The notes beneath the pieces were generated by a model. It searched no databases. It was not told the DNA's origin and saw only the letters and a program-made list of their open reading frames with translations. Below, piece by piece: positions 10,505-43,154 of a stretch of 64,000 nt of DNA (within the stretch, counting starts at the first letter, position 1; each line of letters opens with the position of its first letter). Source of the stretch: Escherichia coli (GTDB taxonomy: Bacteria; Pseudomonadota; Gammaproteobacteria; Enterobacterales; Enterobacteriaceae); the NCBI RefSeq assembly GCF_003019035.1, contig NZ_CP027448.1; one strand, 5' to 3'. The translations under genes were made by a program, and so were the position numbers.

Positions 10505-11887
10505 ATGTATTTTAGATACAGGATTAAGCATGGACGTAAGTATGTTATGAAAAAGGAATATCTCTACAGTATTTCTGCTGTTATTTTCTGTATCTTACTC
10601 GGATTTGGTCTTATTATTATCAATAATGGAACTCCTTCTCCCCTTTCACCCGGACAGTACCACATTATAACACAATCAACTTATTTAATGATGATGGTGG
10701 CTTTATTTTTTATAGATATCATTGCTTTCCTCTTTATGCAACTTTATTTTATTTATGACCGAAATAACTTTTCGCATTGTATTCTTGGGCTGGCTTTCTT
10801 CAGTTGTATTATATATCTTGTTCTGACAATAATAATTGTTCAACAATACGAAAGTGATACTGTATCTGTAGTAAGCATACATAATTCAATCATGGTCCAT
10901 TATTTCTTCAGACAACTGAGCTTTTGCCTGATTATATATCTGGCATTGTGTGCCAGAAACCGAAGAAAAAACACCGCAATGATTGCCGGTAATAAAACGA
11001 TTTTTTTGATTTGTTTTGCCTGTATGATAATACTACCTGTAATATCATATCTGATTAGCCATCAATACTTCTTCCCGGGTATAACTGAAACTGCTTTATA
11101 CAAATTTGATTTTGTCCATATTGAAACATACATTAAATTTATTGTTTTTTTATGGCTGGGACTGGTTTTTTCGCTTTTTTATACCAGAGCGGTAAACAAT
11201 GATATATGGAAGGGGATATTACTGATTGCCATCTCGGCTGTTTTTTATAATGTTTTCGTTTTGTTTATTGTTGACGGGTATATGCATCTCTGGTATCTCA
11301 GCCGAATGGTAGAAATGTTCAGTAAATTAATTGTTGTTTCTGCTTTTATATATCACATATTTAAAGTTCTGCAATCAACAAAACAATTAAGCAACCTCGA
11401 CCCAATGACAAAAACATATAACAGAAATTTTTTCTTTGAAAAAATAAACGAACTTCTCTCAACAGGAGAAACATATTCGTCCGGTGTCTTTATTATTGAT
11501 ATCGATCACTTTAAATCAGTTAATGATACATGGGGACATCCTGCTGGTGACAGAGTCATTCTGGCTGTTGTCGATATATTAAAACAAGGCATCCGCGCAA
11601 CAGATATTCTGTCACGTCTCGGAGGAGAAGAGTTTGGCATTATTATTAATAATATGAATCCATCAAGAATAAAAATATTAGCGGAAAGACTTCGCAGACA
11701 TGTCGAAACCCAGACAAATAATACAACACTCTACAATATTCCTGGTGGGGTCACCATTAGTATTGGCGTTACTCTGATACGAGATAAATCACTTAACGCA
11801 TCTGATATCTATAATGCTACTGATAATGCCTTATATAAAGCGAAATCATCCGGGCGTAATAAAGTTGCCTTTTCAGAGATGGCATAA
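10505..11887 (+). CDS. Membrane-anchored GGDEF-domain diguanylate cyclase
   Basis: C-terminal GGDEF domain with intact RLGGEEFGI motif and IDIDHFKSVND block; N-terminal half is hydrophobic with about 8 predicted TM segments; AT-rich. Start may be the ATG at 10547. Confidence 0.8.
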   Translation: MYFRYRIKHGRKYVMKKEYLYSISAVIFCILLGFGLIIINNGTPSPLSPGQYHIITQSTYLMMMVALFFIDIIAFLFMQLYFIYDRNNFSHCILGLAFFSCIIYLVLTIIIVQQYESDTVSVVSIHNSIMVHYFFRQLSFCLIIYLALCARNRRKNTAMIAGNKTIFLICFACMIILPVISYLISHQYFFPGITETALYKFDFVHIETYIKFIVFLWLGLVFSLFYTRAVNNDIWKGILLIAISAVFYNVFVLFIVDGYMHLWYLSRMVEMFSKLIVVSAFIYHIFKVLQSTKQLSNLDPMTKTYNRNFFFEKINELLSTGETYSSGVFIIDIDHFKSVNDTWGHPAGDRVILAVVDILKQGIRATDILSRLGGEEFGIIINNMNPSRIKILAERLRRHVETQTNNTTLYNIPGGVTISIGVTLIRDKSLNASDIYNATDNALYKAKSSGRNKVAFSEMA

Positions 11888-12187
11888 GTCATACATTACA
11901 GGTATTCAACAGAATGTCAGTAACAGAACATATAATTTCTCATTCTTTATTTTCAGATTTACTTTCTGAGTTTCTGGCTGTCATCTGGTCACTGACCTCT
12001 CAGGAAAAGAGAGGTCTTACAAAAGACGGACAGACCTCATTTCTGCAACTATGAAAAAAGCTGCACATTACGCTGACAATCTACCAGACGGAGCGGTTCA
12101 ACAGGGAAGAATCTATGGTCACCCCCGTTTTTGCGTAACCGTCTCATTTAAACCGTCTTTCACCTCCCTTTCCTGTTTCCGATACTA

Positions 12188-12865
12188 ATGTCCCGCAGTA
12201 AAAGGACATTTAAGATGAATGCACGAAAGGCGGTACTGGCAGATAATCCGGAATTGATCCTGCGTGTGCTACAACTGAGATTTGACGAGTCACTGTCGTA
12301 CCCGCGCATTTCTGCGCAGACCGGTGTCAGCAAAACCGCCATTTTTTCTCTGGTGAGGCGATTTCACCAGATATTCGCTGACTGGCCCCTTTCCGGTGAA
12401 TCTTCCTGCATGCAACTGGCCCGGGCTCTTTTCCCGGGGCGATACCCTTCAGCCCCGACAGTAACTCAGACTGTGAAAACAGAGAAAAACCGCCGGAACC
12501 GATTTTCACAGGAGTTTAAATGGAGACTTGTTCAGCAGACTCTTTTACCCGGTGCCTGTGTCGCACAAATAGCTCGCGAGAACGGAATCAACGATAACCT
12601 GCTCTTTAACTGGCGGCATCTCTGGCGTAACGGCGGCCTGCAGCCGCCCGGCGAACATGAAACATCGCTACTTCCCGTGACGTTAACGCCGGAGCCGGAT
12701 AATAAAATCCCGGCACCAGTGCAGATACCTGAACAGATAAATACACTGCCAGACAGTCTGTGCTACGAGCTGGTTCTGCCGGCCGGAACTCTCAGGCTGA
12801 AAGGTGAACTGACACCGGCGTTATTACAGACACTTATCCGCGAAATGAAAGGGAGCAGCCACTGA
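12188..12865 (+). CDS. IS66-family accessory protein (orfA)
   Basis: 225-aa ORF upstream of and overlapping the TnpB-like ORF. Confidence 0.75.
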   Translation: MSRSKRTFKMNARKAVLADNPELILRVLQLRFDESLSYPRISAQTGVSKTAIFSLVRRFHQIFADWPLSGESSCMQLARALFPGRYPSAPTVTQTVKTEKNRRNRFSQEFKWRLVQQTLLPGACVAQIARENGINDNLLFNWRHLWRNGGLQPPGEHETSLLPVTLTPEPDNKIPAPVQIPEQINTLPDSLCYELVLPAGTLRLKGELTPALLQTLIREMKGSSH

Positions 12866-13212
12866 TGATATCTCTCCCTGCCGGTTCGCGTATCTGGCTG
12901 GTTGCCGGTATCACCGATATGCGAAATGGCTTTAACGGCCTGGCCTCAAAAGTTCAGAACGTCCTGAAGGATGACCCGTTCTCCGGGCATCTGTTCATCT
13001 TCCGCGGACGCCGGGGTGACCAGATAAAAGTGCTGTGGGCTGACAGTGACGGACTGTGCCTCTTCACCAAACGCCTGGAGCGGGGCCGCTTCGTCTGGCC
13101 GGTCACCCGCGATGGAAAGGTTCACCTTACTCCGGCTCAGTTATCTATGCTTCCTGAAGGTATCAACTGGAAGCACCCGAAACGAACAGAACGCGCTGGA
13201 ATCCGTATATAA
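12865..13212 (+). CDS. IS66-family TnpB (orfB)
   Basis: 115-aa ORF closely similar to the orfB at 1070-1417. Confidence 0.85.
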   Translation: MISLPAGSRIWLVAGITDMRNGFNGLASKVQNVLKDDPFSGHLFIFRGRRGDQIKVLWADSDGLCLFTKRLERGRFVWPVTRDGKVHLTPAQLSMLPEGINWKHPKRTERAGIRI

Positions 13213-13231
13213 CCCGTTGTAAAGTGAGGAT

Positions 13232-14802
13232 ATGGACACCTCACTTGCTCATGAGAATGCCCGCCTGCGGGCACTGTTGCAGACGCAACAGGACACCATC
13301 CGCCAGATGGCCGAATATAACCGCCTGCTCTCACTGCGGGTGGCGGCTTATGCTTCCGAAATCAACCGGCTGAAGGCGCTGGTTGCAAAACTGCAGCGCA
13401 TGCAGTTCGGTAAAAGCTCAGAAAAACTTCGCGCAAAAACCGAACGACAGATACAGGAAGCACAGGAGCGAATCAGCGCACTTCAGGAAGAAATGGCGGA
13501 AACGCTGGGTGAGCAATATGACTCGGCACTGCCATCTGCACTGCGCCAGTCTTCAGCCCGTAAACCGTTACCGCCTCACTTCCCCGAGAAACCCGGGTTA
13601 TCCGGCCGGAAGAGGAATGCTGTCCTGCCTGTGGTGGCGAACTCAGTTCTCTGGGATGTGATGTGTCAGAGCAACTGGAGCTTATCAGCAGCGCCTTTAA
13701 GGTTATCGAAACACAACGTCCGAAACTGGCCTGTTGCCGTTGTGACCATATCGTGCAGGCGCCGGTGCCTTCAAAACCCATTGTACGCAGCTATGCCGGA
13801 GCGGGGCTTCTGGCCCATGTTGTCACCGGGAAATATGCAGACCATTTGCCGTTATACCGCCAGTCAGAAATATACCGTCGTCAGGGAGTGGAGCTGAGTC
13901 GTGCCACGCTGGGGCGCTGGACTGGTGCCGTTGCTGAACTACTGGAGCCACTGTATGACGTCCTGCGCCAGTATGTGCTGATGCCCGGTAAAGTCCATGC
14001 CGATGATATCCCCGTCCCGGTCCAGGAGCCGGGCAGCGGTAAAACCCGGACAGCCCGGCTGTGGGTCTACGTCCGTGATGACCGTAACGCCGGTTCACAG
14101 ATGCCTGCGGCGGTCTGGTTCGCGTACAGCCCGAACCGGAAAGGCATCCATCCACAAAATCACCTGGCCGGTTACAGCGGAGTGCTTCAGGCCGATGCTT
14201 ACGGTGGCTACCGGGCGTTATACGAATCCGGCAGAATAACGGAAGCCGCGTGTATGGCTCATGCCCGGAGAAAAATCCACGATGTGCATGCAAGAGCTCC
14301 AACCGATATCACCACGGAAGCCCTGCAGCGTATCGGTGAACTGTATGCCATCGAGGCAGAAGTCCGGGGATGTTCAGCAGAACAGCGTCTGGCGGCAAGA
14401 AAAGCCAGAGCTGCGCCACTGATGCAGTCACTGTATGACTGGATACAGACTCAGATGAAAACACTGTCGCGTCACTCGGATACGGCAAAAGCGTTCGCAT
14501 ACCTGCTGAAACAGTGGGATGGCCTGAACGTGTACTGCAGTAATGGCTGGGTGGAAATCGACAACAACATCGCAGAGAACGCCTTACGGGGAGTGGCCGT
14601 AGGCCGGAAAAACTGGCTCTTCGCGGGTTCCGACAGCGGTGGCGAACATGCGGCGGTGTTGTACTCGCTGATCGGCACATGCCGTCTGAACAATGTGGAG
14701 CCAGAAAAATGGCTGCGCTACGTCATTGAACATATCCAGGACTGGCCGGCAAACCGGGTACGCGATCTGTTGCCCTGGAAAGTTGATCTGAGCTCTCAGT
14801 AA
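13232..14802 (+). pseudogene. IS66-family transposase (orfC), frameshifted near 13600-13660
   Basis: N-terminal piece 13232-13897 and the main piece 13663-14802 are in different frames; together they are collinear with the orfC at 1437-2983. Confidence 0.8.
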
Positions 14803-14892
14803 ATATCAATACGGTTCTGGTGAGCCGCTTACCCACAGATAGATTTAAATATCACGCCTTTTCATGGAGGAGGACTGAAAGGACAAAATGTT

Positions 14893-15282
14893 GTGAATAT
14901 GTGTTTTTATGATGGTTACAGTACTAACAGTAGTCATCTGCAACTTCGGTTTTATGATGATGATGGTTCTGGTTCCAGGACTGATTTATTCAAACTTACA
15001 AGCGCTGATGGCATTGGGAAGTTGCCTTATAAGGTCAGTCTGGCTTTCGGAGAAGGGGCTGCGAAAACGATTATAAATAATCGTACTCTTGTAATCGAAG
15101 GAGGCAATATTCCTGTTAACTGGGCGCGAATCCTACCGGTTTCTTTGCCTGATATTCCGATTCCTGTATTATGTTGGCCTGCAACACTGATACTAAATGC
15201 AAACTTGCCTGTCAGCCAACCCGCTAATGATTATACCGGACGACTTATAGTGGCATTTACACCAGACTCGGCTTCTTTATAG
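14893..15282 (+). CDS. Hypothetical protein (orphan ORF wedged between IS66 and IS110)
   Basis: 129-aa ORF, no family recognised. Confidence 0.3.
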   Translation: MNMCFYDGYSTNSSHLQLRFYDDDGSGSRTDLFKLTSADGIGKLPYKVSLAFGEGAAKTIINNRTLVIEGGNIPVNWARILPVSLPDIPIPVLCWPATLILNANLPVSQPANDYTGRLIVAFTPDSASL

Positions 15283-15310
15283 TTTCATATGTCTTATACA
15301 GGAATCCCTG

Positions 15311-15455
15311 TTGGGGGTTCCTGTATTTGTAAGCATTTTGTTGTTACTTGTGCTAGGCAAACTGCGGATGGATGTGTTGTTCTGTATTCAGTGCGAAATA
15401 ATGAAGGTAAACGAATAATATCGCCATTGATATCGGCAACACCTCTAACATTTGT
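15311..15455 (+). repeat. About 145-bp sequence immediately left of the IS110-family element; second copy at 28665-28802
   Basis: Direct read: ctgtatttgtaagcattttgttg...actgcggatgg...gttctgtattca...aataatgaagg(t/c)aaacgaataatatc(g/a)ccattgatatcggcaa(c/t)acctct(a/g)acatttt shared by both loci. Confidence 0.7.
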
Positions 15456-15461
15456 AAGTGA

Positions 15462-16600
15462 TGAGATGGTCTTCCCCCTCCTTCACGGCAGCCTTCAATT
15501 GCGCCATGAAGGATAAACTTTAACCACAAAAATAAGAGGGATACCATGTCTGAACAGAAAATCACCGGCATCGAGCTGGCTAAAACGAACTTTTATCTTT
15601 TCAGTATCAATGCTCATGGCAACCCCGCAGGAAAGGCCAAACTTTCTCGCAATCAACTGCTTAACTGGCTGGTGCAACAGCCTAAAATGACTGTTGCTAT
15701 GGAGGCTTGCGGGGCATCCCATTACTGGGTCCGGGAAATCAGGAAACTCGACCATGACGTAATATTGCTTCCGGCACAACATGTTAAAGCTTATCAGCGG
15801 CGTCAGAAAAATGATTATAACGACGCACAGGCAATAGCTGAGGCCTGCCAACATGGAACTATACGACCCGTACCAATAAAAAATCTGGAGCAACAGGACG
15901 TCCAGACTTTTTTGAAAATGCGCCGGTTGGTTTCGATGGAAAGGACACAACTGATAAATCACGTTCGTGGACTTCTTGCTGAATACGGCATTGTGTTCAG
16001 TAAAGGTGCAACAGAACTACGCCAAAAATTACCGGCACTACTTGAGGATGCGGAAAACGAACTCACTGATACCATGAGGACGTTATTGCATCGGCAGTAT
16101 ATACGGCTGATTACACTGGATAATGAATTGGAGTGGTATGATTCTGAACAGAAAAAATGTCCGGCAGGATCCTGTGTGCAAACGGTTGTTAGCTATTCCA
16201 GGATTCGGCCCCCTGGTTAGTCAGGCAATAAAAAGCTGGATGGGGGATGGAAAACAGTTTAGACGAGGAAGGGATGCATCTGCAGCTCTGGGGCTGGTTC
16301 CCCGACAGTTCAGCACGGGGGAAAGCAGGTTCTTCTGGGCATAACAAAATGTGGAGATCAATATATCAGATCTATGCTGATACACGGTGCCAGAGCGGTA
16401 TTGTTCAGAGCCTCAGAGAAAACTGATTCACTTAGTATGTGGGTTAATCGTATTCGGGAAAAGCGTGGCTTCAACCGGGCAGTTGTTGCTCTTGCAAATA
16501 AACTCCTTCGGATCGCCTGGATAATTATCGCCCGCAATGAGATGTATTTGCCTGCAATTTAAGCCAGATGTAATCTGACAGATACCTGTATAAATAACCG
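15462..16600 (+). mobile_element. IS110-family element with decayed transposase (boundaries approximate)
   Basis: DEDD-type IS110 transposase reading frame; left boundary inferred from where homology to the inverted partial copy at 27925-28300 stops. Confidence 0.6.
15546..16562 (+). pseudogene. IS110-family transposase, two frameshifts
   Basis: Three consecutive ORF pieces (15546-16220, 16123-16344, 16374-16562) carry the N-terminal catalytic region and the C-terminal IS110 signatures (...LLAIPGFGPLVSQAI..., ...LGLVPRQFSTGES..., ...ALANKLLRIAWIIIARNE...). Confidence 0.75.
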
Positions 16601-17566
16601 GTAACTGTCAGATCAGGTCTGAGCTAATACAGGTATGGCAGAACGTGACGTATTTGTACGGTGAATCCGGGGACATTTTGTGGAAGGTTTCCCGGAAATA
16701 GACCATGCAGGAGGAATGACCGGCGATAAAGTCTGCAAATACGGACTGATAAGGGTGATTATTGGCTCTGGCGACGGCTTTTAGAACTTCTTTCACCATT
16801 CTGGTGTGGACTTTCTGGTGCTCCAGGTTGTGTGACATGGGAACTCATTCTGGATGGTTACTCTGAAAGCTCATATTCTGCTACACCCCGATTTGCATCT
16901 GCCAAACTGTCGTGGTTTTGACGAGCCGCTTACGTAAATAATTGCTGTTAACAAACAGATTTAATGTTTCATCATTTTTATTATGTCGCCACTCTGTCCG
17001 CTCTGATACCCCTACTCACTATCATTGCTGGTGAGTCTTGGACTAACTCAAATAACTATTACGGGATATGGGGAGTGACAGCAAATGCTGTATTTTCTCT
17101 TGGTTCCTCACTTTATATTAAGTTTGTCAGCAATTTTCGCTCTTCATAAAAACGTACTGTCTGGTATTGGATGAATGTGAAGCATACCAGAGAGGAACTA
17201 TAAAAATATACATCAGTCATTCCATCCTGTTCTGTCTGTAAAGTCCTAATTATTTCTGAACTGTACTGGTGATAAAGCTTGGTGTTTGTTGTTTTTATAA
17301 CTAATTGAAATTACTTGGATAATGTTAAATAATCTTAAATAATTTTTCATCTGACTCTTTGTGCTTTAGGTTGGTTTTATCCAACGTCTTGGGTGTGCGA
17401 TATGCCGACATGTTATGTATTGCGATCTCCCTTTAATATTTATTGGATAGATGTTTATTGTGTCTTTGCATTATTGCCTGTGCATGTACAGGCAATGGCC
17501 GCGGTTGCAGATGAATTTCATGTGTTATTTTAGTTTGTCGCGTCGCACAAAGAGGGGTGGGGTGAA

Positions 17567-18109
17567 ATGCGTCTTGGAATAATAATGCAGCTGTTGATTG
17601 TGCTCTTTTTTATGCGGGATGGATGGGGGGCGGAGCGAATAATATTTTCTGTAGATGTTGTGTCTTCAGCTTGTCATGTGGTGGTGGATGCGGACAGCAC
17701 CGGCAACAGTGGCCGGCTGACATTCGGGACTTACCGCAAGTCCACGGGGGCGTCTGTGCCTCCGCGTGACTTCACTGTGCGTCTGTATGAGTCCGGTGCC
17801 ACGGTTCAGGGCTGCTCAGCCTTTAAGGTCGGGCAGGTCGCCACTCTGGATTTTGGCAATCCGGGACAGCTGGACGCAGGGGGCGTGGTCACCCGCGGTG
17901 CCGGTGATGGTATTCGCGTGGATGTGCGCGCGGTGGATGCGCAGGCAGATTATCGCGGACGTCTGACTCAGGACAGTCATTCGGTGAATTACCCGGTGGA
18001 GTTTGCTGCTAAGGGACAGTTCCGTTTTCGTGCGCAGCCGGTGTTTCCGGCAAACGTGAAGGCGGGAGAATACACGGGTGCACTGACCTTTGTGGTCACG
18101 TATCAGTAA
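17567..18109 (+). CDS. Fimbrial minor subunit (FaeC-like) of a K88/F4-like chaperone-usher operon
   Basis: 180-aa secreted protein ending ...TFVVTYQ (pilin C-terminal strand); first gene of the operon, as faeC in K88. Confidence 0.7.
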
Positions 18110-18123
18110 CGGAGAAAAGGATT

Positions 18124-20568
18124 GTGTGTGCAGGAAAGAAGACAGTCGCTGAGCCGGTTTCGTCCGTGTTTTTCCGTCGGGCCGCACTTGCGCTTGCCGT
18201 ATCAGCTGCTTTTGCCAGTGCCACAGGTGTTGCAGGTGAAAAACTGGATATGTCCTTTATCCAGGGTGGTGCCGGGGTTAATCCGGAAGTCTGGGCAGCC
18301 CTGAACGGCAGCTATGCGCCGGGGCGTTATCTGGTTGACCTGTCCCTGAACGGGAAGGAGGCCGGGAAACAGATACTGGATGTGACACCACAGGACAGTA
18401 ATGAACTGTGTCTGACAGAGGCATGGCTGACGAAGGCCGGGATTTACGTCAGTGCAGATTACTTTCGTGAGGGATATGACGCCACACGACAGTGCTATGT
18501 GCTGACAAAAGCCCCGTCAGTGAAGGTGGATTTTGATGTTTCCACCCAGAGTCTGGCGCTGTCCATTCCCCAGAAGGGGCTGGTGAAGATGCCGGAGAAT
18601 GTGGACTGGGATTACGGGACCAGTGCATTTCGCGTGAACTATAACGCGAACGCCAACACCGGCCGTAATAACACCTCGGCCTTTGGCTCAGCGGACCTGA
18701 AAGCCAATATCGGGCACTGGGTGGTGAGTTCTTCTGTCACGGCCAGCGGCGATGACAGCGGGGATAACTCCACCACGATAAACATGTTTACGGCCACCCG
18801 GGCCATCCGCGCACTGAGTGCGGACCTGGCGGTCGGGAAAACATCCACCGGGGACAGTCTGCTGGGCAGTACGGGAACGTACGGCGTGTCGCTGAGCCGG
18901 AACAACAGCATGAAGCCGGGCAATCTGGGGTATACCCCGGTGTTCAGCGGCATTGCGAACGGGCCGTCGAGGGTGACGCTGACACAGAACGGGCGGTTGC
19001 TGTATTCGGAGATGGTGCCGGCGGGGCCGTTCTCCATCACGGATGTGCCGCTGTACACCAGTGGTGATGTGACCATGAAAATCACCGGTGAAGACGGGCG
19101 CGAGCAGGTACAGTACTTCCCGTTGTCGGTGATGGCCGGGCAGTTAAGTCCGGGGCAGCACGAGTTCAGTGTGGCAGCCGGTTTGCCTGACGATGACAGT
19201 GACCTGAAAGGCGGTGTGTTTGCGGCGTCATACGGTTACGGTCTGGACGGGCTGACGCTGCGCAGCGGGGGAGTGTTTAACCAGGACTGGCAGGGTGTCA
19301 GCGCCGGGGCTGTTCTGGGGCTGAGTTATCTGGGGGCGGTATCTGCTGACGGCGCTTATGCCACGGCAAAATACCGTGACGGCAGCCGCAGCGGAAATAA
19401 GGTGCAGTTATCCTGGAGTAAACAACTTGAGATGACGAACACCGGACTGCGGGTGAGCTGGTCACGGCAGAGTGAGGAATATGAGGATATGTCCTCCTTT
19501 GACCCGACAGAGTTGTGGTCGCAGTCAAATCACGGTCGCCGGACGAAGGATGAATGGAATGCCGGTGTCAGTCAGCCGGTGGGTGGTCTGTTCAGTCTGT
19601 CGGTGTCCGGCTGGCAGCGGAGTTATTACCCCGCATCCATGACCGGGAGTTACCGGTACAGCGATGACAACGGTAAGGACACGGGGATTACCGGCACCCT
19701 GAGCACACAGATTAAGGGCGTCAGTCTGAACCTGGGCTGGTCCGGTTCACGGAACACCTGGGGGGAAAACAACTGGTCTGCATCGGCGTCAGTGTCGGTA
19801 CCGTTCACACTGTTTGACCGTCGTTACAGCAGCAGTACGTCGGTGAGCACCAGCAAAGGCGGTGGCACAGGCTTCAGCACCGGCATGTCCGGCTCGCTGA
19901 ATGACCGTTTCAGCTATGGCCTGGGCGGTGGTCGTGACAGCAGTGGCGGTGTGAGCAGTTATCTGAATGCGTCGTACAGTGGTGACCGGGCTTACCTGAG
20001 TGGTGCCCTGAACCACTCGCAGTCCGGCGGAACCAGTGGTTCTGTCTCGGTCAGCGGTTCGGTACTGGCCGTTCCGGCGGCGAAAGACATCATGTTCAGC
20101 CGCACGACCGGGGATACCGTGGCCGTGGTGAACGTGAAGGATACCCCGGGAGTGAAGGTGACGTCCGGTGACGGACAGACTGACAGCGATGGCAACCTGG
20201 TGGTACCGCTGAACAGCTATGACTGGAACACGGTGACGATTGATGCGGGCACGCTGCCGCTGAGCACAGAACTGACGAACACCAGTCAGAAGGTGGTGCC
20301 AACGGACAAGGCGGTGGTGTGGATGCCGTTTGATGCCCTGAAAGTTAAGCGTTACCTGCTGCAGGTGAAGCAGCGTGACGGTGAGTTTGTGCCGGGGGGA
20401 ACCTGGGCACGTGACAGTAAGAACACACCGCTGGGCTTTGTGGCCAACAATGGTGTGCTGATGATTAACACGGTGGATGCGCCGGGTGATATCACCCTGG
20501 GCCGGTGCCGGATACCTGCGGCGAAACTGCAGGATACTGAGAAACTACAGGAGATTACGTGTGAGTAA
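18124..20568 (+). CDS. Fimbrial outer-membrane usher (FaeD-like)
   Basis: 814-aa ORF of typical usher size and composition; GTG start after a GGAG RBS; lies between subunit and chaperone genes. Confidence 0.9.
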   Translation: MCAGKKTVAEPVSSVFFRRAALALAVSAAFASATGVAGEKLDMSFIQGGAGVNPEVWAALNGSYAPGRYLVDLSLNGKEAGKQILDVTPQDSNELCLTEAWLTKAGIYVSADYFREGYDATRQCYVLTKAPSVKVDFDVSTQSLALSIPQKGLVKMPENVDWDYGTSAFRVNYNANANTGRNNTSAFGSADLKANIGHWVVSSSVTASGDDSGDNSTTINMFTATRAIRALSADLAVGKTSTGDSLLGSTGTYGVSLSRNNSMKPGNLGYTPVFSGIANGPSRVTLTQNGRLLYSEMVPAGPFSITDVPLYTSGDVTMKITGEDGREQVQYFPLSVMAGQLSPGQHEFSVAAGLPDDDSDLKGGVFAASYGYGLDGLTLRSGGVFNQDWQGVSAGAVLGLSYLGAVSADGAYATAKYRDGSRSGNKVQLSWSKQLEMTNTGLRVSWSRQSEEYEDMSSFDPTELWSQSNHGRRTKDEWNAGVSQPVGGLFSLSVSGWQRSYYPASMTGSYRYSDDNGKDTGITGTLSTQIKGVSLNLGWSGSRNTWGENNWSASASVSVPFTLFDRRYSSSTSVSTSKGGGTGFSTGMSGSLNDRFSYGLGGGRDSSGGVSSYLNASYSGDRAYLSGALNHSQSGGTSGSVSVSGSVLAVPAAKDIMFSRTTGDTVAVVNVKDTPGVKVTSGDGQTDSDGNLVVPLNSYDWNTVTIDAGTLPLSTELTNTSQKVVPTDKAVVWMPFDALKVKRYLLQVKQRDGEFVPGGTWARDSKNTPLGFVANNGVLMINTVDAPGDITLGRCRIPAAKLQDTEKLQEITCE

Positions 20569-21352
20569 GCGTAACGCAGTAACGACGTTTTTCACTAACC
20601 GGGTGACAAAAGCACTGGGAATGACGCTGGCGCTGATGATGACCTGTCAGAGTGCGATTGCTTCCCTGGCGGCAGACCAGACCCGCTATATCTTTCGCGG
20701 GGACAAGGATGCGCTGACCATCACGGTCACCAACAATGACAAGGAGCGTACCTTTGGTGGTCAGGCCTGGGTGGACAATATCGTGGAGAAGGACACCCGT
20801 CCGACCTTTGTTGTGACACCGTCCTTCTTCAGGGTGAAGCCGAATGGTCAGCAGACGCTGCGTATCATCATGGCCTCGGACCATCTGCCGAAGGACAAAG
20901 AGTCAGTGTACTGGCTGAACCTGCAGGATATTCCGCCGGCTCTGGAGGGCAGCGGTATTGCAGTGGCGCTGCGCACGAAGCTGAAGCTGTTCTATCGTCC
21001 GAAGGCACTGCTTGAAGGCCGCAAGGGGGCAGAAGAAAGCATCAGCCTGCAGAGCCGCCCGGATGGCAGAACTATGCTGGTGAACACCACGCCGTACATT
21101 TATGCGATTGGCAGCCTGCTGGACGGAAACGGGAAGAGAATTACCACGGATAACGAGACGGCACAGAAACTGCTGATGTTCATGCCGGGGGATGAAGTAC
21201 AGGTAAAAGGGAATGTGGTTAAGGTTGCTTCACTGAACGATTACGGTGAACTGCAGACCTGGACAATTAACCAGAAAAAAACGTCAGCGTCTTCCGGGGA
21301 GAAGGTATCTGATTCGTCGGTTAATTTGCCTGATAAAGCAGAGAAGAAATAA
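20561..21352 (+). CDS. Fimbrial periplasmic chaperone (FaeE-like)
   Basis: About 260-aa protein following the usher; GTG at 20561 (AGGAG RBS, overlaps the usher stop) or ATG at 20621. Confidence 0.8.
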   Translation: MSKRNAVTTFFTNRVTKALGMTLALMMTCQSAIASLAADQTRYIFRGDKDALTITVTNNDKERTFGGQAWVDNIVEKDTRPTFVVTPSFFRVKPNGQQTLRIIMASDHLPKDKESVYWLNLQDIPPALEGSGIAVALRTKLKLFYRPKALLEGRKGAEESISLQSRPDGRTMLVNTTPYIYAIGSLLDGNGKRITTDNETAQKLLMFMPGDEVQVKGNVVKVASLNDYGELQTWTINQKKTSASSGEKVSDSSVNLPDKAEKK

Positions 21353-37802: not shown

Positions 37803-40800
37803 TCAGTCTCCGCCCAGGGTTTTCTCTTTCTGCAGGTCACGAACCATATCCCGCTCCATCTGCTGCAGACGCTCCTGCAGCAGATTTTCCCGGGCAACCT
37901 CCCGGACCGCTTCCCGCTCCCGTTGTGATTCACGCAGCACACTATCCGGCAGCGCGGCTTCCCGTTCAGTTATGGCAGCCCGGTCACGCTCCTGCCCGGC
38001 AATTTCCCTGACAGCCAGCTCTGTTTTGCCATCCGGCAGGTCAGGTTTGTTCTCTGCCATTTTACGGACAATTTCATCTGCGCGGCGTTCCGTTTCACGG
38101 CGGATGGCCTCTTCAGCCTGCCTCTGTGCCAGCACCTCTGCCGTGACCGGTTCGCCATTTCCGGCTCCCGGCTGGACGCTGTTGTCCGGGATATCCCCCC
38201 ACACGCGGCCACCGGTTATGGCACCGGGATTCCACGGACGGCCTTCACCGGCGATTCTTACCACCACACCACTGTCAGGATTATCACGGGCAATCCGGAC
38301 ACCATCCTGCATATTATCAGCCAGCAGGCTTTCTCCGTTACGGCTGCCCTGCAGGGCCACAAACTGTGCATCTTCACTGCCCTTCACCCGGCCTTCACCA
38401 CTGAATCCCCGCAGCCCGTTTCCGTCATCCGTGGTCAGCGGGTTCAGCCAGATACCGGCAGACTTGCCGTTACGGTCAAAAGCCGGCAGTGCCACATACG
38501 GCTGTGGGTATTTGCGCCCCGGAGCAATAAACCGTGCAGGACTGTCTCCCCCGGCCAGCCCCGCCTGACGAAGAACGGCTCGGCCTGCCGCCACGTCCCG
38601 CAGCTCCCGCGCCGTACTGAACAGCCGCTCTGCATTCATGACCTCCCGGTCCGATTTCGGCTCAAACACATCGTGGGCAGTTCCTTTCTGTTCGGCATTG
38701 TTAATGGCATCCGTCCAGCCCTGACGGTTATCGGTGTACACCTGCACATGCTGCTTCATACGCGACAGGGCCACGTAGGCTGACTCAAAGCCGGCCATCT
38801 GTTTCCGGCTGCCTTCCGTGCCTTCAAGCGCAATGGCAAAGGTTTCACTTGCCCCCTGCGCACCGTGGGCGGTGATGGCATAGGCCAGGTCAATATGTTG
38901 CTCTGCCCGCTCCTGACCGGGGCGAATCACCCGGGTCTGCTGTCCGCCCGACAGCGTGACACTGTCACCGGAAACCGCTGTCACCGTCCAGACGCTGTTG
39001 GCCACATAGCCGCGCTCCCGGTCACTCTTCGTGAAGCGCATCCGGTCACCGGTCCCCACCCGGATGGTGTCCGGGGTGTACAGTGTGACACCTTCAGCCA
39101 CCGCCTCCCGGGGCGAAATCAGCCGCGTGTTACCTTCCGCATCCTGCAGGGTTATCAGCCCGTCACCCTTACTGATACCGGCAATCCGGTGATACACATT
39201 ATCCACCAGGACAAGTGCGTCCCGATGTGTCTCCCAGGTGGAGAGACGACGCAACTCCCCGTCGCGTATATTCGCTGTGTTCAGGACAGGCACCATGACC
39301 TGCTCTTTCCCCAGCTCACCGGCCTTTTCCCGTGCATCATGAATCATGCTGTTCAGTACGCGCCGGTCCTCATTCAGGTGCGTGACAATAAGCGTCTGCT
39401 CCCGTGCTTCCGGCGTCCTGCCGGTATAGTCGCGGACAATGGCTTCATACAGTGTCATGGGGACATCCGGAAAAGCCTCGCCGTTCTGCATCGCCTTCTG
39501 CTGCGCTTCTGCCAGTTTCGCTTCCTGGCTGTGACTGAACTCCGTCACAGAGTGCTCCGGTACCCATGCGCCCTCCTGACGTGGCACCTGAGACGGTTTC
39601 ACACTCTCAAGCCCGGACAATGCCCTTTCCACATCCCGGTTAATCAGGCTGTATACCGCCTCCCGCAGTTCCGGCGTCTGACGCACAATCTCCTTCATGA
39701 TGGCCACATCGGCAGCGCTGCGCGTCTGCTGGAGACGGAAAGGCTGACCGGGCGCGATGGCCTGCAGCTGGTCCGTGTCACCGCTGGCCACTGCACGACC
39801 ACCACCGGCCGCAATCAGGGCATATGCCCGTGCCATGTCGGTATTGCCCACCATTGAGCTCTCATCGAGCAGGAACAGCGTGTTGCTGAAATCCGGCGTT
39901 TCTCCGCTGCGCAGCTGCAGCTGCGTGCCATGCAGAAAGGACGCCAGTGTCTGTGCATCCACGCCGGCGCTGCGCATCTCCCCGACCGCACGGTGCGTGG
40001 GCCCCAGCCCCACGACACGGGGACGCTCACTCTCCGGCAGCATGTTCACGGCTGACATCACCGCCCGGAACTGTGTGGTCTTACCCACACCGGCATAGCC
40101 CTGCACCACCGTGAAACGGTCGGACGTTTCCAGTATCATGCGGGTGGCGGCACGCTGTCCTGATGTCAGACTCTCCATGACTCCGCCAGGGACTCTCTCC
40201 ATCAGCGGCGTGACCGCCTCCTTACCTTCGAGAATATGGCGAAGAATGCTCTTTTCTGCCTCATACGACGCACGGGAAACCAGCAGGCCTGTGCCATAGC
40301 CTTTTGCCACATCCACATACAGTAAATCACCGCGTTTTATCTGCGCATTGATTTCCCCTCCCAGTTCAGTAAAACTGGTTCCTTCTGCAGCAAACGACTT
40401 CGCCTCTGTCAGCAGGTCCACCATGCTGAAGGCCAGGTTTTTACTTTCCAGCACAGGAAGGGCCAGATGAATGGCCTGCTGTGCCGGCGTGTGAAGCCCG
40501 GCTTTCTGCAGACTGATAGCGGTTTCCAGCAATGTCTCACCGGCACGCGCCTTTATCTGCTCAGAAACCACCGTAAAGGAGGGATGGCGGGCAAGGTTTT
40601 CCGCCGTACGGGTTTCATCCAGCGAGGAATACAGCCGGACATCACGACCGCTGCGGGCCAGACCGTTCAGGGTGGCGTTGTCCATTGCCATCTGTGTGAC
40701 GGAGGCAAAAACCTTCGCACTGTCGCTGACGGAATGCCCGGGCGTTTCCACCCAGCCGTTCTCCAGCTTCAGTGCCGTGAACGGTGAATCGCTCACAGGC

Positions 40801-43073
40801 AGGGAGGCCGGTTCAGCCCGCCCCGGCACAACAACCGTCATCGAATCTTCACTGACGGATGCCACCTGCAGGCGGTCACCGCCGGAGACGCGGAGTCCGG
40901 GAATTTTCCCTGTCACCCTCAGACGCTCGCCGTCTGCCACCGGCATTTTTTCCGGCCGGAACAGCGACCAGCTGCTGTCCAGGGAGGAAATACGCACCAC
41001 CTGCGTTTCGCCCTGCGCATCCCGCAGGGTCAGGCTGTGACTCTGCGCCGTCACCCGATCGATAACATAGAGGTCATGACTGCGTGTCTCCGGGTTCCAC
41101 TGCTCCATCACCATCCCCGGACGGTACATATCCCGCAGATAACGGCTCCGGCTGTCCAGCCAGACCGGTGACAGAGCGGTCATGGTCACCTCCGGGTGTC
41201 CGAGCACGCCCTGTGTTTTCAGCTCACTGCGAACGGCCTGTGTCAGTATGGCCTGTTCCCGTACCCCGCTGACCTGTGCCACGCTCTCTTCTCCGGCTTT
41301 CACGCTGGCCGCAAAATCTCCGGCCAGCCGGGCATAGCGGACATTACGGTCCGGTTCACTGATGATGGTGGCCGGTCGCTGTTCTCCCCCCTGCCAGCGA
41401 TATGTGTTCACCCCGGCATCTTTCATGGCCATCAGTGCACTGCCTGTACCGGTTCGCTGCCCGCTGTCGGTTATCAGGACCTGTACGTTATGACGTGCGG
41501 CACCGTCCAGCAGGGTTAACGTCTCTTTCAGGGAGAGTTTTTCGCCCTGGTCAACGATAACAGTACTGCCCAGCGTGAAGGCCATGCCTTCCAGCAGCTG
41601 ACGACGTCCGGTTATCAGCTCACCGGACAGCCGTTCATCCTGCTTCAGGTTCATCTGCGAGCGACGGTCAGCAGCGATAATCTGCACTTCCCGCCCCTGC
41701 TCCCGGGCCATCATGACCAGTTCAGCCACCCGCTCACGCTGCCCGGCTGCACCGCCCTGCCCGGACACAATGGCCAGCGACGGACGGTCCTGTGCCAGAA
41801 CACTGACGGCATCGCTGTAGCCGGCCGTCCGGGGGACACTTTTCTCCGGATGTACGGTCACCCGGTTCTGTTTCATGATATCGCGACTGAGTGCCCGGAC
41901 TGACAGTTCATCGAGCACATGAATCCCGGACGTGAACAGCCCCTTCTCACGGTCAAGGGGGATGAGTTGCTCACGGCTGATGGCCTCATCGATACCGGCG
42001 CGTGCCCGTTCAATCACACCATTTTCCGGCGGCAGTATACCGACCGTTCTGGCCAGCACGTCCGTGTACGTAAACTGCACTTTTCGTTCACTTAATCCGG
42101 CAATCGCCTGTGTCACCGCCTGCTGCACATCCGGCCCCTCCTGTGAAACAGCCCCGGGCGCCTGCGTGCGGGTCTCCGCACGCTGATCCGCCGCGTCACG
42201 ATATGCCCGGATGTCGAACCCGGTTTCCTTCAGCGTCTGCATCCATTCAGCCATTCTGACTTCAGGATCGACGTGCTGTTTGGATTTTCGCGTATCCAGT
42301 GCCGCCACATCCCGGGATTTCAGCGAGGCGTCCTCCCCGACGGCCTCCCGGATAGTCTGCGAGCGTCCAGAAAAGGCCTCCACCGGTATGCCCAGCATTT
42401 CCCACATACCGTGCTGACCCACCACTTCGGTTTCATAGCCCAGCGCCTCAACCTGCTCTTTCAGTTTTTCCCGGTAGAGCCTGCCAAAGGCAATCTGATT
42501 AGCGTACACATTCTCAATGAACCCCGTTTTCCCCACTTTGTCACTGCTCAGTGTCTTCCATTCGCCGTTATGCTGCGTGACATTAGCCACCACCGCATGC
42601 GTGTGTAACTGTGGTTCCTGATCGCGACTGGTGTCGTGGTTAAACAGTGCCATCACCAGATTACCGGTCAGCACCGTTTCTGACTGTCCGTCCGTCATCA
42701 CCCGTGTGGAGGCCAGCGCCTCCACCTGACGGACAGCAAAATCCACGGCCTGGTTATGTGCTTCAATAAGACGTTTGTCCCCCCCGAGCATGGCCATCAT
42801 GGAGACACTTTTGGGAGCGGAAAAGGTCAGGTCGTAGCCGGGACGATGCCTGTTACGGCCATCCTGCATGCGGCTTAAATCCGCCCCGTCTGGCAACCTG
42901 CCCTCCAGAAGGCGGGTAAAGACATCCTTATCGACACTGCCCTGCAGCCCCAGTTGTTCAGCCCCCTGGCCGGCCCAGCGTTCTCCCATGCTGCCCAGCA
43001 CATAGTAATTATCCTTGTCGGTATAATAGTTCCCGGCACTTCCGGCCGATCTGACCTGCGCAATACTCATCAT
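37803..43073 (-). CDS. traI: TraI relaxase/helicase
   Basis: About 1756-aa protein; N-terminal relaxase (MMSIAQVRSAGSAGNYYTDKDNYY...) plus helicase domains; the track start at 43094 adds 7 residues. Confidence 0.95.
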   Translation of the reverse strand: MMSIAQVRSAGSAGNYYTDKDNYYVLGSMGERWAGQGAEQLGLQGSVDKDVFTRLLEGRLPDGADLSRMQDGRNRHRPGYDLTFSAPKSVSMMAMLGGDKRLIEAHNQAVDFAVRQVEALASTRVMTDGQSETVLTGNLVMALFNHDTSRDQEPQLHTHAVVANVTQHNGEWKTLSSDKVGKTGFIENVYANQIAFGRLYREKLKEQVEALGYETEVVGQHGMWEMLGIPVEAFSGRSQTIREAVGEDASLKSRDVAALDTRKSKQHVDPEVRMAEWMQTLKETGFDIRAYRDAADQRAETRTQAPGAVSQEGPDVQQAVTQAIAGLSERKVQFTYTDVLARTVGILPPENGVIERARAGIDEAISREQLIPLDREKGLFTSGIHVLDELSVRALSRDIMKQNRVTVHPEKSVPRTAGYSDAVSVLAQDRPSLAIVSGQGGAAGQRERVAELVMMAREQGREVQIIAADRRSQMNLKQDERLSGELITGRRQLLEGMAFTLGSTVIVDQGEKLSLKETLTLLDGAARHNVQVLITDSGQRTGTGSALMAMKDAGVNTYRWQGGEQRPATIISEPDRNVRYARLAGDFAASVKAGEESVAQVSGVREQAILTQAVRSELKTQGVLGHPEVTMTALSPVWLDSRSRYLRDMYRPGMVMEQWNPETRSHDLYVIDRVTAQSHSLTLRDAQGETQVVRISSLDSSWSLFRPEKMPVADGERLRVTGKIPGLRVSGGDRLQVASVSEDSMTVVVPGRAEPASLPVSDSPFTALKLENGWVETPGHSVSDSAKVFASVTQMAMDNATLNGLARSGRDVRLYSSLDETRTAENLARHPSFTVVSEQIKARAGETLLETAISLQKAGLHTPAQQAIHLALPVLESKNLAFSMVDLLTEAKSFAAEGTSFTELGGEINAQIKRGDLLYVDVAKGYGTGLLVSRASYEAEKSILRHILEGKEAVTPLMERVPGGVMESLTSGQRAATRMILETSDRFTVVQGYAGVGKTTQFRAVMSAVNMLPESERPRVVGLGPTHRAVGEMRSAGVDAQTLASFLHGTQLQLRSGETPDFSNTLFLLDESSMVGNTDMARAYALIAAGGGRAVASGDTDQLQAIAPGQPFRLQQTRSAADVAIMKEIVRQTPELREAVYSLINRDVERALSGLESVKPSQVPRQEGAWVPEHSVTEFSHSQEAKLAEAQQKAMQNGEAFPDVPMTLYEAIVRDYTGRTPEAREQTLIVTHLNEDRRVLNSMIHDAREKAGELGKEQVMVPVLNTANIRDGELRRLSTWETHRDALVLVDNVYHRIAGISKGDGLITLQDAEGNTRLISPREAVAEGVTLYTPDTIRVGTGDRMRFTKSDRERGYVANSVWTVTAVSGDSVTLSGGQQTRVIRPGQERAEQHIDLAYAITAHGAQGASETFAIALEGTEGSRKQMAGFESAYVALSRMKQHVQVYTDNRQGWTDAINNAEQKGTAHDVFEPKSDREVMNAERLFSTARELRDVAAGRAVLRQAGLAGGDSPARFIAPGRKYPQPYVALPAFDRNGKSAGIWLNPLTTDDGNGLRGFSGEGRVKGSEDAQFVALQGSRNGESLLADNMQDGVRIARDNPDSGVVVRIAGEGRPWNPGAITGGRVWGDIPDNSVQPGAGNGEPVTAEVLAQRQAEEAIRRETERRADEIVRKMAENKPDLPDGKTELAVREIAGQERDRAAITEREAALPDSVLRESQREREAVREVARENLLQERLQQMERDMVRDLQKEKTLGGD

Positions 43074-43154
43074 AAACGTATATCCCTTTGACATATCCCG
43101 GCATCAATCCCACAATGGATATACACAAGACATATCCACATAAGGAGGCAAATA

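Follow-up and report, generated by a model that had tools for sequence, protein, structure and literature searches.

The ORF that we analyzed lies on the + strand of a 64,000-nucleotide stretch of Escherichia coli DNA (contig NZ_CP027448.1; the whole stretch is referred to here as the window), begins with a GTG, and encodes 129 aa (14893–15282). The initial annotation had placed this ORF between an IS66 and an IS110 element, and the ORF listing of the window and the element boundaries bear out both the ORF and its setting, with IS66 ending at 14832 and IS110 starting at 15454. The distance between the two elements is 621 bp (14833–15453), however, rather than the 450 bp that had been given. 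The ORF itself is real, but its limits were drawn too short. The reading frame is open from 14824 (in a translation of 14803–15282), homology to the fimbrial adhesin CfaE and to an intact ortholog begins at 14833–14836, 60 nt 5' of the GTG, and the residues that precede the GTG (QIDLNITPFHGGGLKGQNVV) are conserved family sequence. Because the homology reaches the IS66 end, upstream of the called start, the true feature is 14833–15282, and the GTG, which corresponds to Val238 of the intact 366-aa protein, is an internal codon for valine at which the longest ORF happens to begin. The features of the locus are collected in Table 1.

Table 1. Features at and around the ORF, in window coordinates.
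Feature	Position	Strand	Basis or remark
ISCro1-like IS66-family IS (tnpA, tnpB, frameshifted tnpC)	12135..14832	+	Inverted repeats and boundaries of E. coli copies; right end is the junction
5'-truncated CfaE/CblD-family (class 5) tip-adhesin remnant, codons 218–366 and native stop	14833..15282	+	tblastn, CfaE alignment, PDB matches
129-aa ORF of the initial annotation	14893..15282	+	ORF listing, Pfam PF07434; GTG internal to the old frame
Native 3' flank of the adhesin gene	15283..15453	+	Collinear with the intact-gene flank in L008–L011
Terminator-like hairpin	15296..15326	+	14 nt after the stop; RNA fold −22.8 kcal/mol, z = −5.1
IS110-family element	15454..16557	+	First 397 bp (15454–15850) also downstream of the intact gene elsewhere
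Inverted second copy of the IS110 5' 397-bp segment	27924..28320	−	99.2% identical to 15454–15850

The ORF had been described as belonging to no recognizable family, which is wrong. Pfam PF07434 (CblD-like pilus biogenesis initiator/CfaE) matches it with E = 2.5e-19 and 70 bits, above the gathering cut-off of 25 bits, over profile positions 166–295 of 296; the intact ortholog, P0092, scores 192 bits against the same profile. When the whole open frame was compared with the PDB by phmmer, the CfaE entries 6K73, 3VAC, 2HB0, and 3F83 were matched at E of about 4e-30, in an alignment that covers the query from residue 2, immediately after the IS66 end. By tblastn, residues 216–360 of 360 of CfaE from strain H10407 align with 14836–15279 at 43% identity (E = 2.4e-29). 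The family-invariant residues L222, C241, Y243, D244, G245, Y283, C331, and P333, which were taken from the invariant columns of a 30-sequence alignment, are all kept. An exhaustive search of representative proteins gave 82 relatives at E ≤ 1e-3, most of them full-length proteins of 350–400 aa that match via their C-terminal ∼150 residues; a word-indexed protein search returned the remnant's own cluster only, and the full-length relatives required the exhaustive search and the cluster listing. TcfD was the sole NCBIfam match and fell far below threshold (29 and 112 bits against an equivalog cut-off of 589), so the remnant is not an ortholog of TcfD. TcfD (a Salmonella Typhi colonization factor) and CblD (of the Burkholderia cable pilus) are nonetheless tip subunits of the same alternate chaperone–usher family as the remnant.

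These matches bear on whether the ORF could be a chance reading frame in a noncoding spacer between two IS elements, a reading that its short length, its GTG start, the lack of a convincing ribosome-binding site, and the mobile elements on both sides would all suit. The Pfam match (E = 2.5e-19), the PDB matches (E = 4e-30), the 98.7% identity to the C terminus of the intact protein, and the 82 relatives refute it, and we give it essentially no credence. Judged from its sequence, this DNA is coding-derived, far beyond chance.

CfaE is the tip adhesin of the CFA/I fimbriae of ETEC (PDB 2HB0, 3F83, and 6K73), and its class 5 relatives include CsaE (CS4) and CsdD (CS19). Its adhesin domain comprises residues 23–200 and its pilin domain residues 201–360; the Ig fold of the latter is incomplete and has to be supplemented by a strand donated by CfaA (the chaperone) or CfaB (the pilin) (PMC7531860). 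The remnant resembles CfaE in its PF07434 match and in its 43% identity to the C-terminal pilin domain (CfaE 216–360), and it shares with the CfaE group the motifs MCFYDGYSTNSS and PVLCWP and the C-terminal FTP(S/D)S tail, which docks in the chaperone cleft. Unlike CfaE, it consists of the last 149 codons only, with no signal peptide, no equivalent of CfaE 23–200, no first pilin strand, and no cfaA/B/C-type partners in the window. In an AlphaFold model of P0092 (pLDDT 88.7, pTM 0.83), the first pilin-domain strand is formed by residues 207–209, which precede codon 218, and the pilin domain of the fragment is therefore clipped at its N terminus. The remnant begins with MNMCFYDGYSTNSS, which has no hydrophobic core, whereas the intact protein begins with MKYLFFVMFYIVSFQAIATA. 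Compared with the intact locus, the window has lost the three upstream genes and 651 nt from the start of the adhesin gene. Searching the 64-kb window by tblastn, we found no homolog of CfaA, CfaB, CfaC, or the adhesin N terminus, and none of the chaperone, pilin, and usher encoded at an intact locus (L008) save a decayed usher scrap.

The fragment is thus a piece of a CfaE/CblD family member: it matches the family profile above the curated cut-off and is homologous to the solved CfaE pilin domain with its invariant residues in place, but it lacks the complete architecture of the family (a Sec signal peptide, an adhesin domain, and a full pilin domain in about 360 aa) and does not stand as the last gene of a chaperone–pilin–usher–adhesin operon, as the intact ortholog and the distant relatives do. 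Incorporation at a pilus tip and receptor binding are predicted to be impossible for such a fragment. The initial annotation had also raised the possibility of a small secreted or adhesin-like protein. The parent was indeed an adhesin, but its receptor-binding domain and signal peptide are gone and no partners are encoded in the window, so this suggestion is not supported for what is left.

A longer homolog whose C terminus matches the ORF, the check that had been proposed, was found both in P0092 (residues 218–366) and, at 43% identity, in CfaE (residues 216–360). P0092 (EFG0071743.1 and others; E. coli GCA_012538675.1, contig AASRQF010000018.1) is the 366-aa member of the remnant's own 90% cluster, which also includes many short forms, and by tblastn its residues 218–366 are 98.7% identical to window 14833–15279. 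In four E. coli assemblies, the P0092 gene is the final gene of a class 5 operon, which in L008 occupies 5967–11101. The products of this operon are, in order, a 242-aa chaperone, a Fimbrial_CS1 major pilin of 169 aa, an 886-aa usher of the TcfC/CooC type, and the 366-aa adhesin; distant full-length relatives (51–54% identity) likewise close chaperone–pilin–usher–adhesin operons. Positions 10652–11665 of the intact locus L008 align with window 14833–15850 at 96.6%. The P0092 locus and the window have in common the 3' flank, a downstream IS110 fragment, and ibrB-like, PAPS-reductase, virK-like, and K88-like neighbors. The P0092 locus differs in that the adhesin has its full 366 aa, the chaperone, CS1-type pilin, and usher genes lie upstream, and there is no IS66 at codon 218.

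The parent gene is about 40% identical to CfaE overall, and about 40–43% identical to the CS4 and CS19 adhesins over the retained part. With CfaE this distant, the parent appears to derive from a different, apparently uncharacterized class 5 fimbria, and the fimbria in question, which lies outside the window, may be one of livestock E. coli. Among 5,426 complete E. coli genomes, megablast and blastn found no intact copy and found the remnant in two plasmids only; the plasmid collection likewise held no intact copy, only remnants and ETEC adhesins of about 40% identity. Our literature search found no paper describing the parent fimbria. The stub therefore has some use as a pointer to an intact and apparently uncharacterized class 5 operon in livestock-associated E. 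coli, absent from the window, which could merit study as a colonization factor together with the divergent second adhesin paralog upstream of it. This paralog, a divergent CfaE-family gene just upstream of the chaperone gene (L008 4225–5325, − strand; also in L009–L011 and, as P0002, in L004), encodes 366–394 aa and, over the pilin domain, shares about 55% identity with the remnant. P0002 itself is a full-length relative, 70% identical, whose gene lies on a short contig, immediately upstream of ibrA/ibrB-like genes. Such a pair of tip-adhesin paralogs at one class 5 locus is unusual and, apparently, has not been described.

The usher scrap in the window is 313 bp long (16935–17247, − strand) and matches residues 36–144 of the L008 usher at 42–47% amino-acid and 72.7% nucleotide identity. 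It carries in-frame stops and a frameshift, and it adjoins an IS66-like end, GTAAGCGGCTCGTC (terminal repeat at 16918–16933). Because of its divergence, we assign the scrap to a different class 5 operon than the one from which the adhesin remnant came.

On its 5' side, the remnant abuts the right end of the ISCro1-like element. We assigned this element to the IS66 family by its tnpA-tnpB-tnpC organization and its terminal inverted repeats, for which the expected start is GTAAGCG. Its right inverted repeat, GTAAGCGGCTCACCAG, is exact at 14817–14832, and its left inverted repeat, GTAACCGTCTCA, runs from 12135 and begins GTAACCG. The ends agree with those of thousands of ISCro1 copies in E. coli, whose match to the window begins at 12128–12135 and ends at 14832–14834. 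The element contains ORFs at 12188–12865, 12865–13212, and 13232–14802, the last of which, tnpC, is frameshifted and split into overlapping ORFs (13232–13897 and 13663–14802, with the stop at 14802). Because of this frameshift, which RefSeq also marks in the plasmid-bearing strains VG35A2 and RM8082, the copy that forms the junction is probably immobile now.

The two 8-bp flanks of the element differ (GTTTTTGC at 12127–12134 and CCACAGAT at 14833–14840), and no 8-bp target-site duplication surrounds 12135–14832. Its left flank is a diguanylate-cyclase/TPR region that is unrelated to the fimbrial locus. We rejected a simple IS66 insertion, with the 5' half of the gene still on the other side of the element, on both of these grounds, and the lack of a target-site duplication indicates that the upstream part of the gene was deleted and not merely displaced. 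The upstream DNA would have been removed by an IS66-associated deletion or by inter-IS recombination, and we infer an IS66-mediated deletion rather than recombination between two IS66 copies. The identical junction is present in p3RM8082 (from a cattle STEC O121:H7), in p35A2a (from a Swiss farm), and in loci L013–L020, which points to a single ancestral event. The window also contains a second, divergent IS66-family element at 149–2964, 71–76% identical to the ISCro1-like copy, within which 169 bp (149–317) are 96% identical to 12231–12399 in inverted orientation; this element and the inverted piece are further evidence of IS66-driven mosaicism.

On the 3' side, the remnant keeps its native stop, and the 171 bp between the stop and IS110 differ from the corresponding flank of the intact gene in L008–L011 by 9 substitutions and a 4-bp indel. 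The initial annotation's first suggestion, that the ORF is the remnant of a larger gene truncated by insertion, is thus borne out on the IS66 side, where what remains corresponds to P0092 218–366, and fails on the IS110 side, where the stop, the hairpin, and the flank are all native. The intact locus has a hairpin as well, as does an 80% paralogous copy at 28646–28671. In a consensus scan for promoters and terminators, no signal rose above background and the hairpin was not called; we consider that it is probably the old terminator of the operon.

The paralogous copy belongs to a second copy of the whole 171-bp flank at 28635–28801 (+ strand; 80–84% similar). Its hairpin has a different stem (ACAGCCCCC...GGGGGCTGT) but shares the outer bases and the tail, ATTTGTAAGCATTTTGTTG, of the first. 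This second copy looks like an unoccupied paralog of the IS110 insertion site, because it ends at the point where IS110 starts in the first copy.

IS110 had to be considered as a possible cause of truncation at the 3' end. Its boundaries were set from E. coli copies (2,555 places in 1,680 genomes), and as expected for the family, it encodes a DEDD transposase (Pfam PF01548, DEDD_Tnp_IS110; E = 6e-15) and has many near-identical copies. Its first 397 bp also follow the intact gene in L008 (11269–11665), making IS110 an older neighbor and not the cause of the truncation; on this ground, and because the remnant retains its native stop and flank, we rejected a 3' truncation by IS110. The transposase frame (15546–16562, + strand) is broken into three ORFs (224, 73, and 62 aa), compared with the roughly 338 aa expected of an intact gene, and because of this split the copy appears to be inactivated. 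ORFs of 224 and 73 aa are likewise called in L021.

The remnant occurs well beyond the window, with members of its cluster on dozens of contigs. WP_322353660.1 (RM8082, p3RM8082) and WP_354669356.1 (VG35A2, p35A2a) represent the same remnant with the same IS66 junction, and their DNA is 99.6–99.7% identical to that of the window. In the window, the frame is open for 149 codons with neither a frameshift nor a premature stop, but this is not so in all relatives: a 13-bp frameshifting deletion (14878–14890) is found in L013–L018, and IS100 has inserted at 14905–14911 in VG35A2 and in L019–L021. In sheep plasmids, only the last 59 codons are left, behind IS1414 and with a 1-bp deletion. A 142-aa form, P0088, was considered as an independent truncation and rejected, since it is this IS66 remnant carrying the IS100 insertion.

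The five coding differences that separate the remnant lineage from the intact genes are all synonymous, which we read as the signature of past purifying selection. Two further substitutions, G266R (14977) and G291E (15053), are unique to the window among 15 compared loci, and both are nonsynonymous changes from glycine to a charged residue. Every one of these observations of decay would fit neutral drift, with substitution counts that are small and too few for a formal dN/dS.

We are highly confident that the ORF is a nonfunctional, 5'-truncated pseudogene fragment of a class 5 (alternate chaperone–usher, CfaE/CblD family) tip-adhesin gene. The ancestral plasmid locus would have been a four-gene operon encoding a chaperone, a CS1-type major pilin, an usher, and a 366-aa tip adhesin. 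An ISCro1-like IS66-mediated rearrangement would then have deleted everything upstream of codon 218, that is, the chaperone, pilin, and usher genes and, from the adhesin gene, the coding sequence for its signal peptide, receptor-binding domain, and first pilin-domain beta-strand. This would have left codons 218–366, the last 40% of the adhesin gene, followed by its native stop and by the 3' flank with the terminator-like hairpin, and with the older IS110 insertion on the right. Such a fragment could be neither exported nor assembled into a pilus, would probably not be expressed, and would drift neutrally.

Some observations sit less comfortably with a pseudogene. The 149-codon frame is open here without a frameshift, so translation of the fragment is conceivable; read-through transcription from the IS66 tnpC is possible; and the fairly wide spread of the remnant could mean that it is retained, although hitchhiking on a successful plasmid backbone explains the spread equally well. 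We therefore weighed a functional small protein made of the pilin domain only, translated from 14893 (the GTG) or from a start farther upstream, perhaps thanks to IS66 read-through, and serving a new role that could be capping of, or interference with, another fimbria, or that of a secreted factor. The open frame, the retention of all family-invariant residues of the retained part, and the RefSeq annotation as a CDS are in keeping with such a protein. However, it would have no signal peptide (MNMCFYDGYSTNSS having no hydrophobic core), the first strand of the pilin domain is absent by the P0092 AlphaFold model, and the fold would be incomplete without the donor strand of the cognate chaperone or pilin (PMC7531860), neither of which is encoded in the window. 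No ribosome-binding site was found at a useful distance from the GTG; the GGAGGAGGA run at 14866–14874 encodes a conserved Gly-Gly-Gly motif and, being 19 nt away from the GTG, is not positioned as a ribosome-binding site. Relatives moreover tolerate the 13-bp deletion, the IS100 insertion, and deeper truncation, and both derived changes here swap glycine for a charged residue. We consider a functional protein very unlikely.

The fragment might alternatively be kept as a silent cassette that supplies pilin-domain sequence, through homologous recombination, to intact class 5 adhesin genes in the same cell. Paralogous adhesin genes at 70–75% nucleotide identity do exist (the divergent copy in L008, and P0002), and the decayed usher scrap of a different class 5 operon lies nearby, but there is no intact class 5 adhesin in the window, no recombination signal or cassette-type repeat architecture, and disabling changes accumulate in the relatives. 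This idea is pure speculation, and we regard it as exceedingly improbable. Taken together, the prospect that the fragment is expressed (e.g., by IS66 read-through) as a leaderless pilin-domain polypeptide, or acts as a recombination cassette for pilin-domain exchange, is slight; if it were true, a dead-looking stub would act in fimbrial regulation or variation.

As a pseudogene, the remnant represents routine IS-driven gene decay on a mosaic E. coli virulence-type plasmid and carries little biological weight. In RefSeq, the identical stubs already go by the name "CfaE/CblD family pilus tip adhesin", and only a pseudogene flag is to be added: the RM8082 and VG35A2 records carry the stub as an ordinary CDS and not as a pseudogene. 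This flag is advisable because annotation of the stub as a CDS could lead virulence-gene screens to miscount it as a colonization-factor adhesin. The RM8082 genome paper does not discuss the fragment.

The wider surroundings of the remnant have been rearranged as well. L001, L002, and L008 are collinear with the window from 28320 down to 19223 or 25201, on the opposite strand, and the segment between the two 397-bp IS110 copies is inverted in the window relative to L008, RM8082, and VG35A2, while L021 is arranged like the window. In p3RM8082 and p35A2a, the K88-like segment accordingly has the opposite orientation, and p35A2a further differs in its IS100 insertion. The inverted segment contains a K88-like fae operon together with virK-like, PAPS-reductase/DUF3440, and ibrB-like genes (an ibrAB-like segment). 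We presume that the inversion arose by recombination between the two 397-bp IS110 copies.

The K88 (F4)-like fimbrial operon at 17567–24707 (+ strand) comprises faeC-, D-, E-, F-, H-, and I-like genes along with a candidate for a divergent major subunit, which is annotated as "hypothetical". It is only 88–92% identical to the version beside the intact class 5 locus in L008, and the RM8082 genome paper mentions fae homologs without characterizing them. Elsewhere in the window, a 1,299-aa serine-protease autotransporter with Pfam Peptidase_S6 and PIC/HAP1 beta-solenoid matches is encoded at 3339–7238 (− strand), and tra genes lie further on, including a 1,763-aa ORF at 37803–43094. The autotransporter and the tra genes mark the window as part of a large conjugative F-type plasmid of the virulence style.
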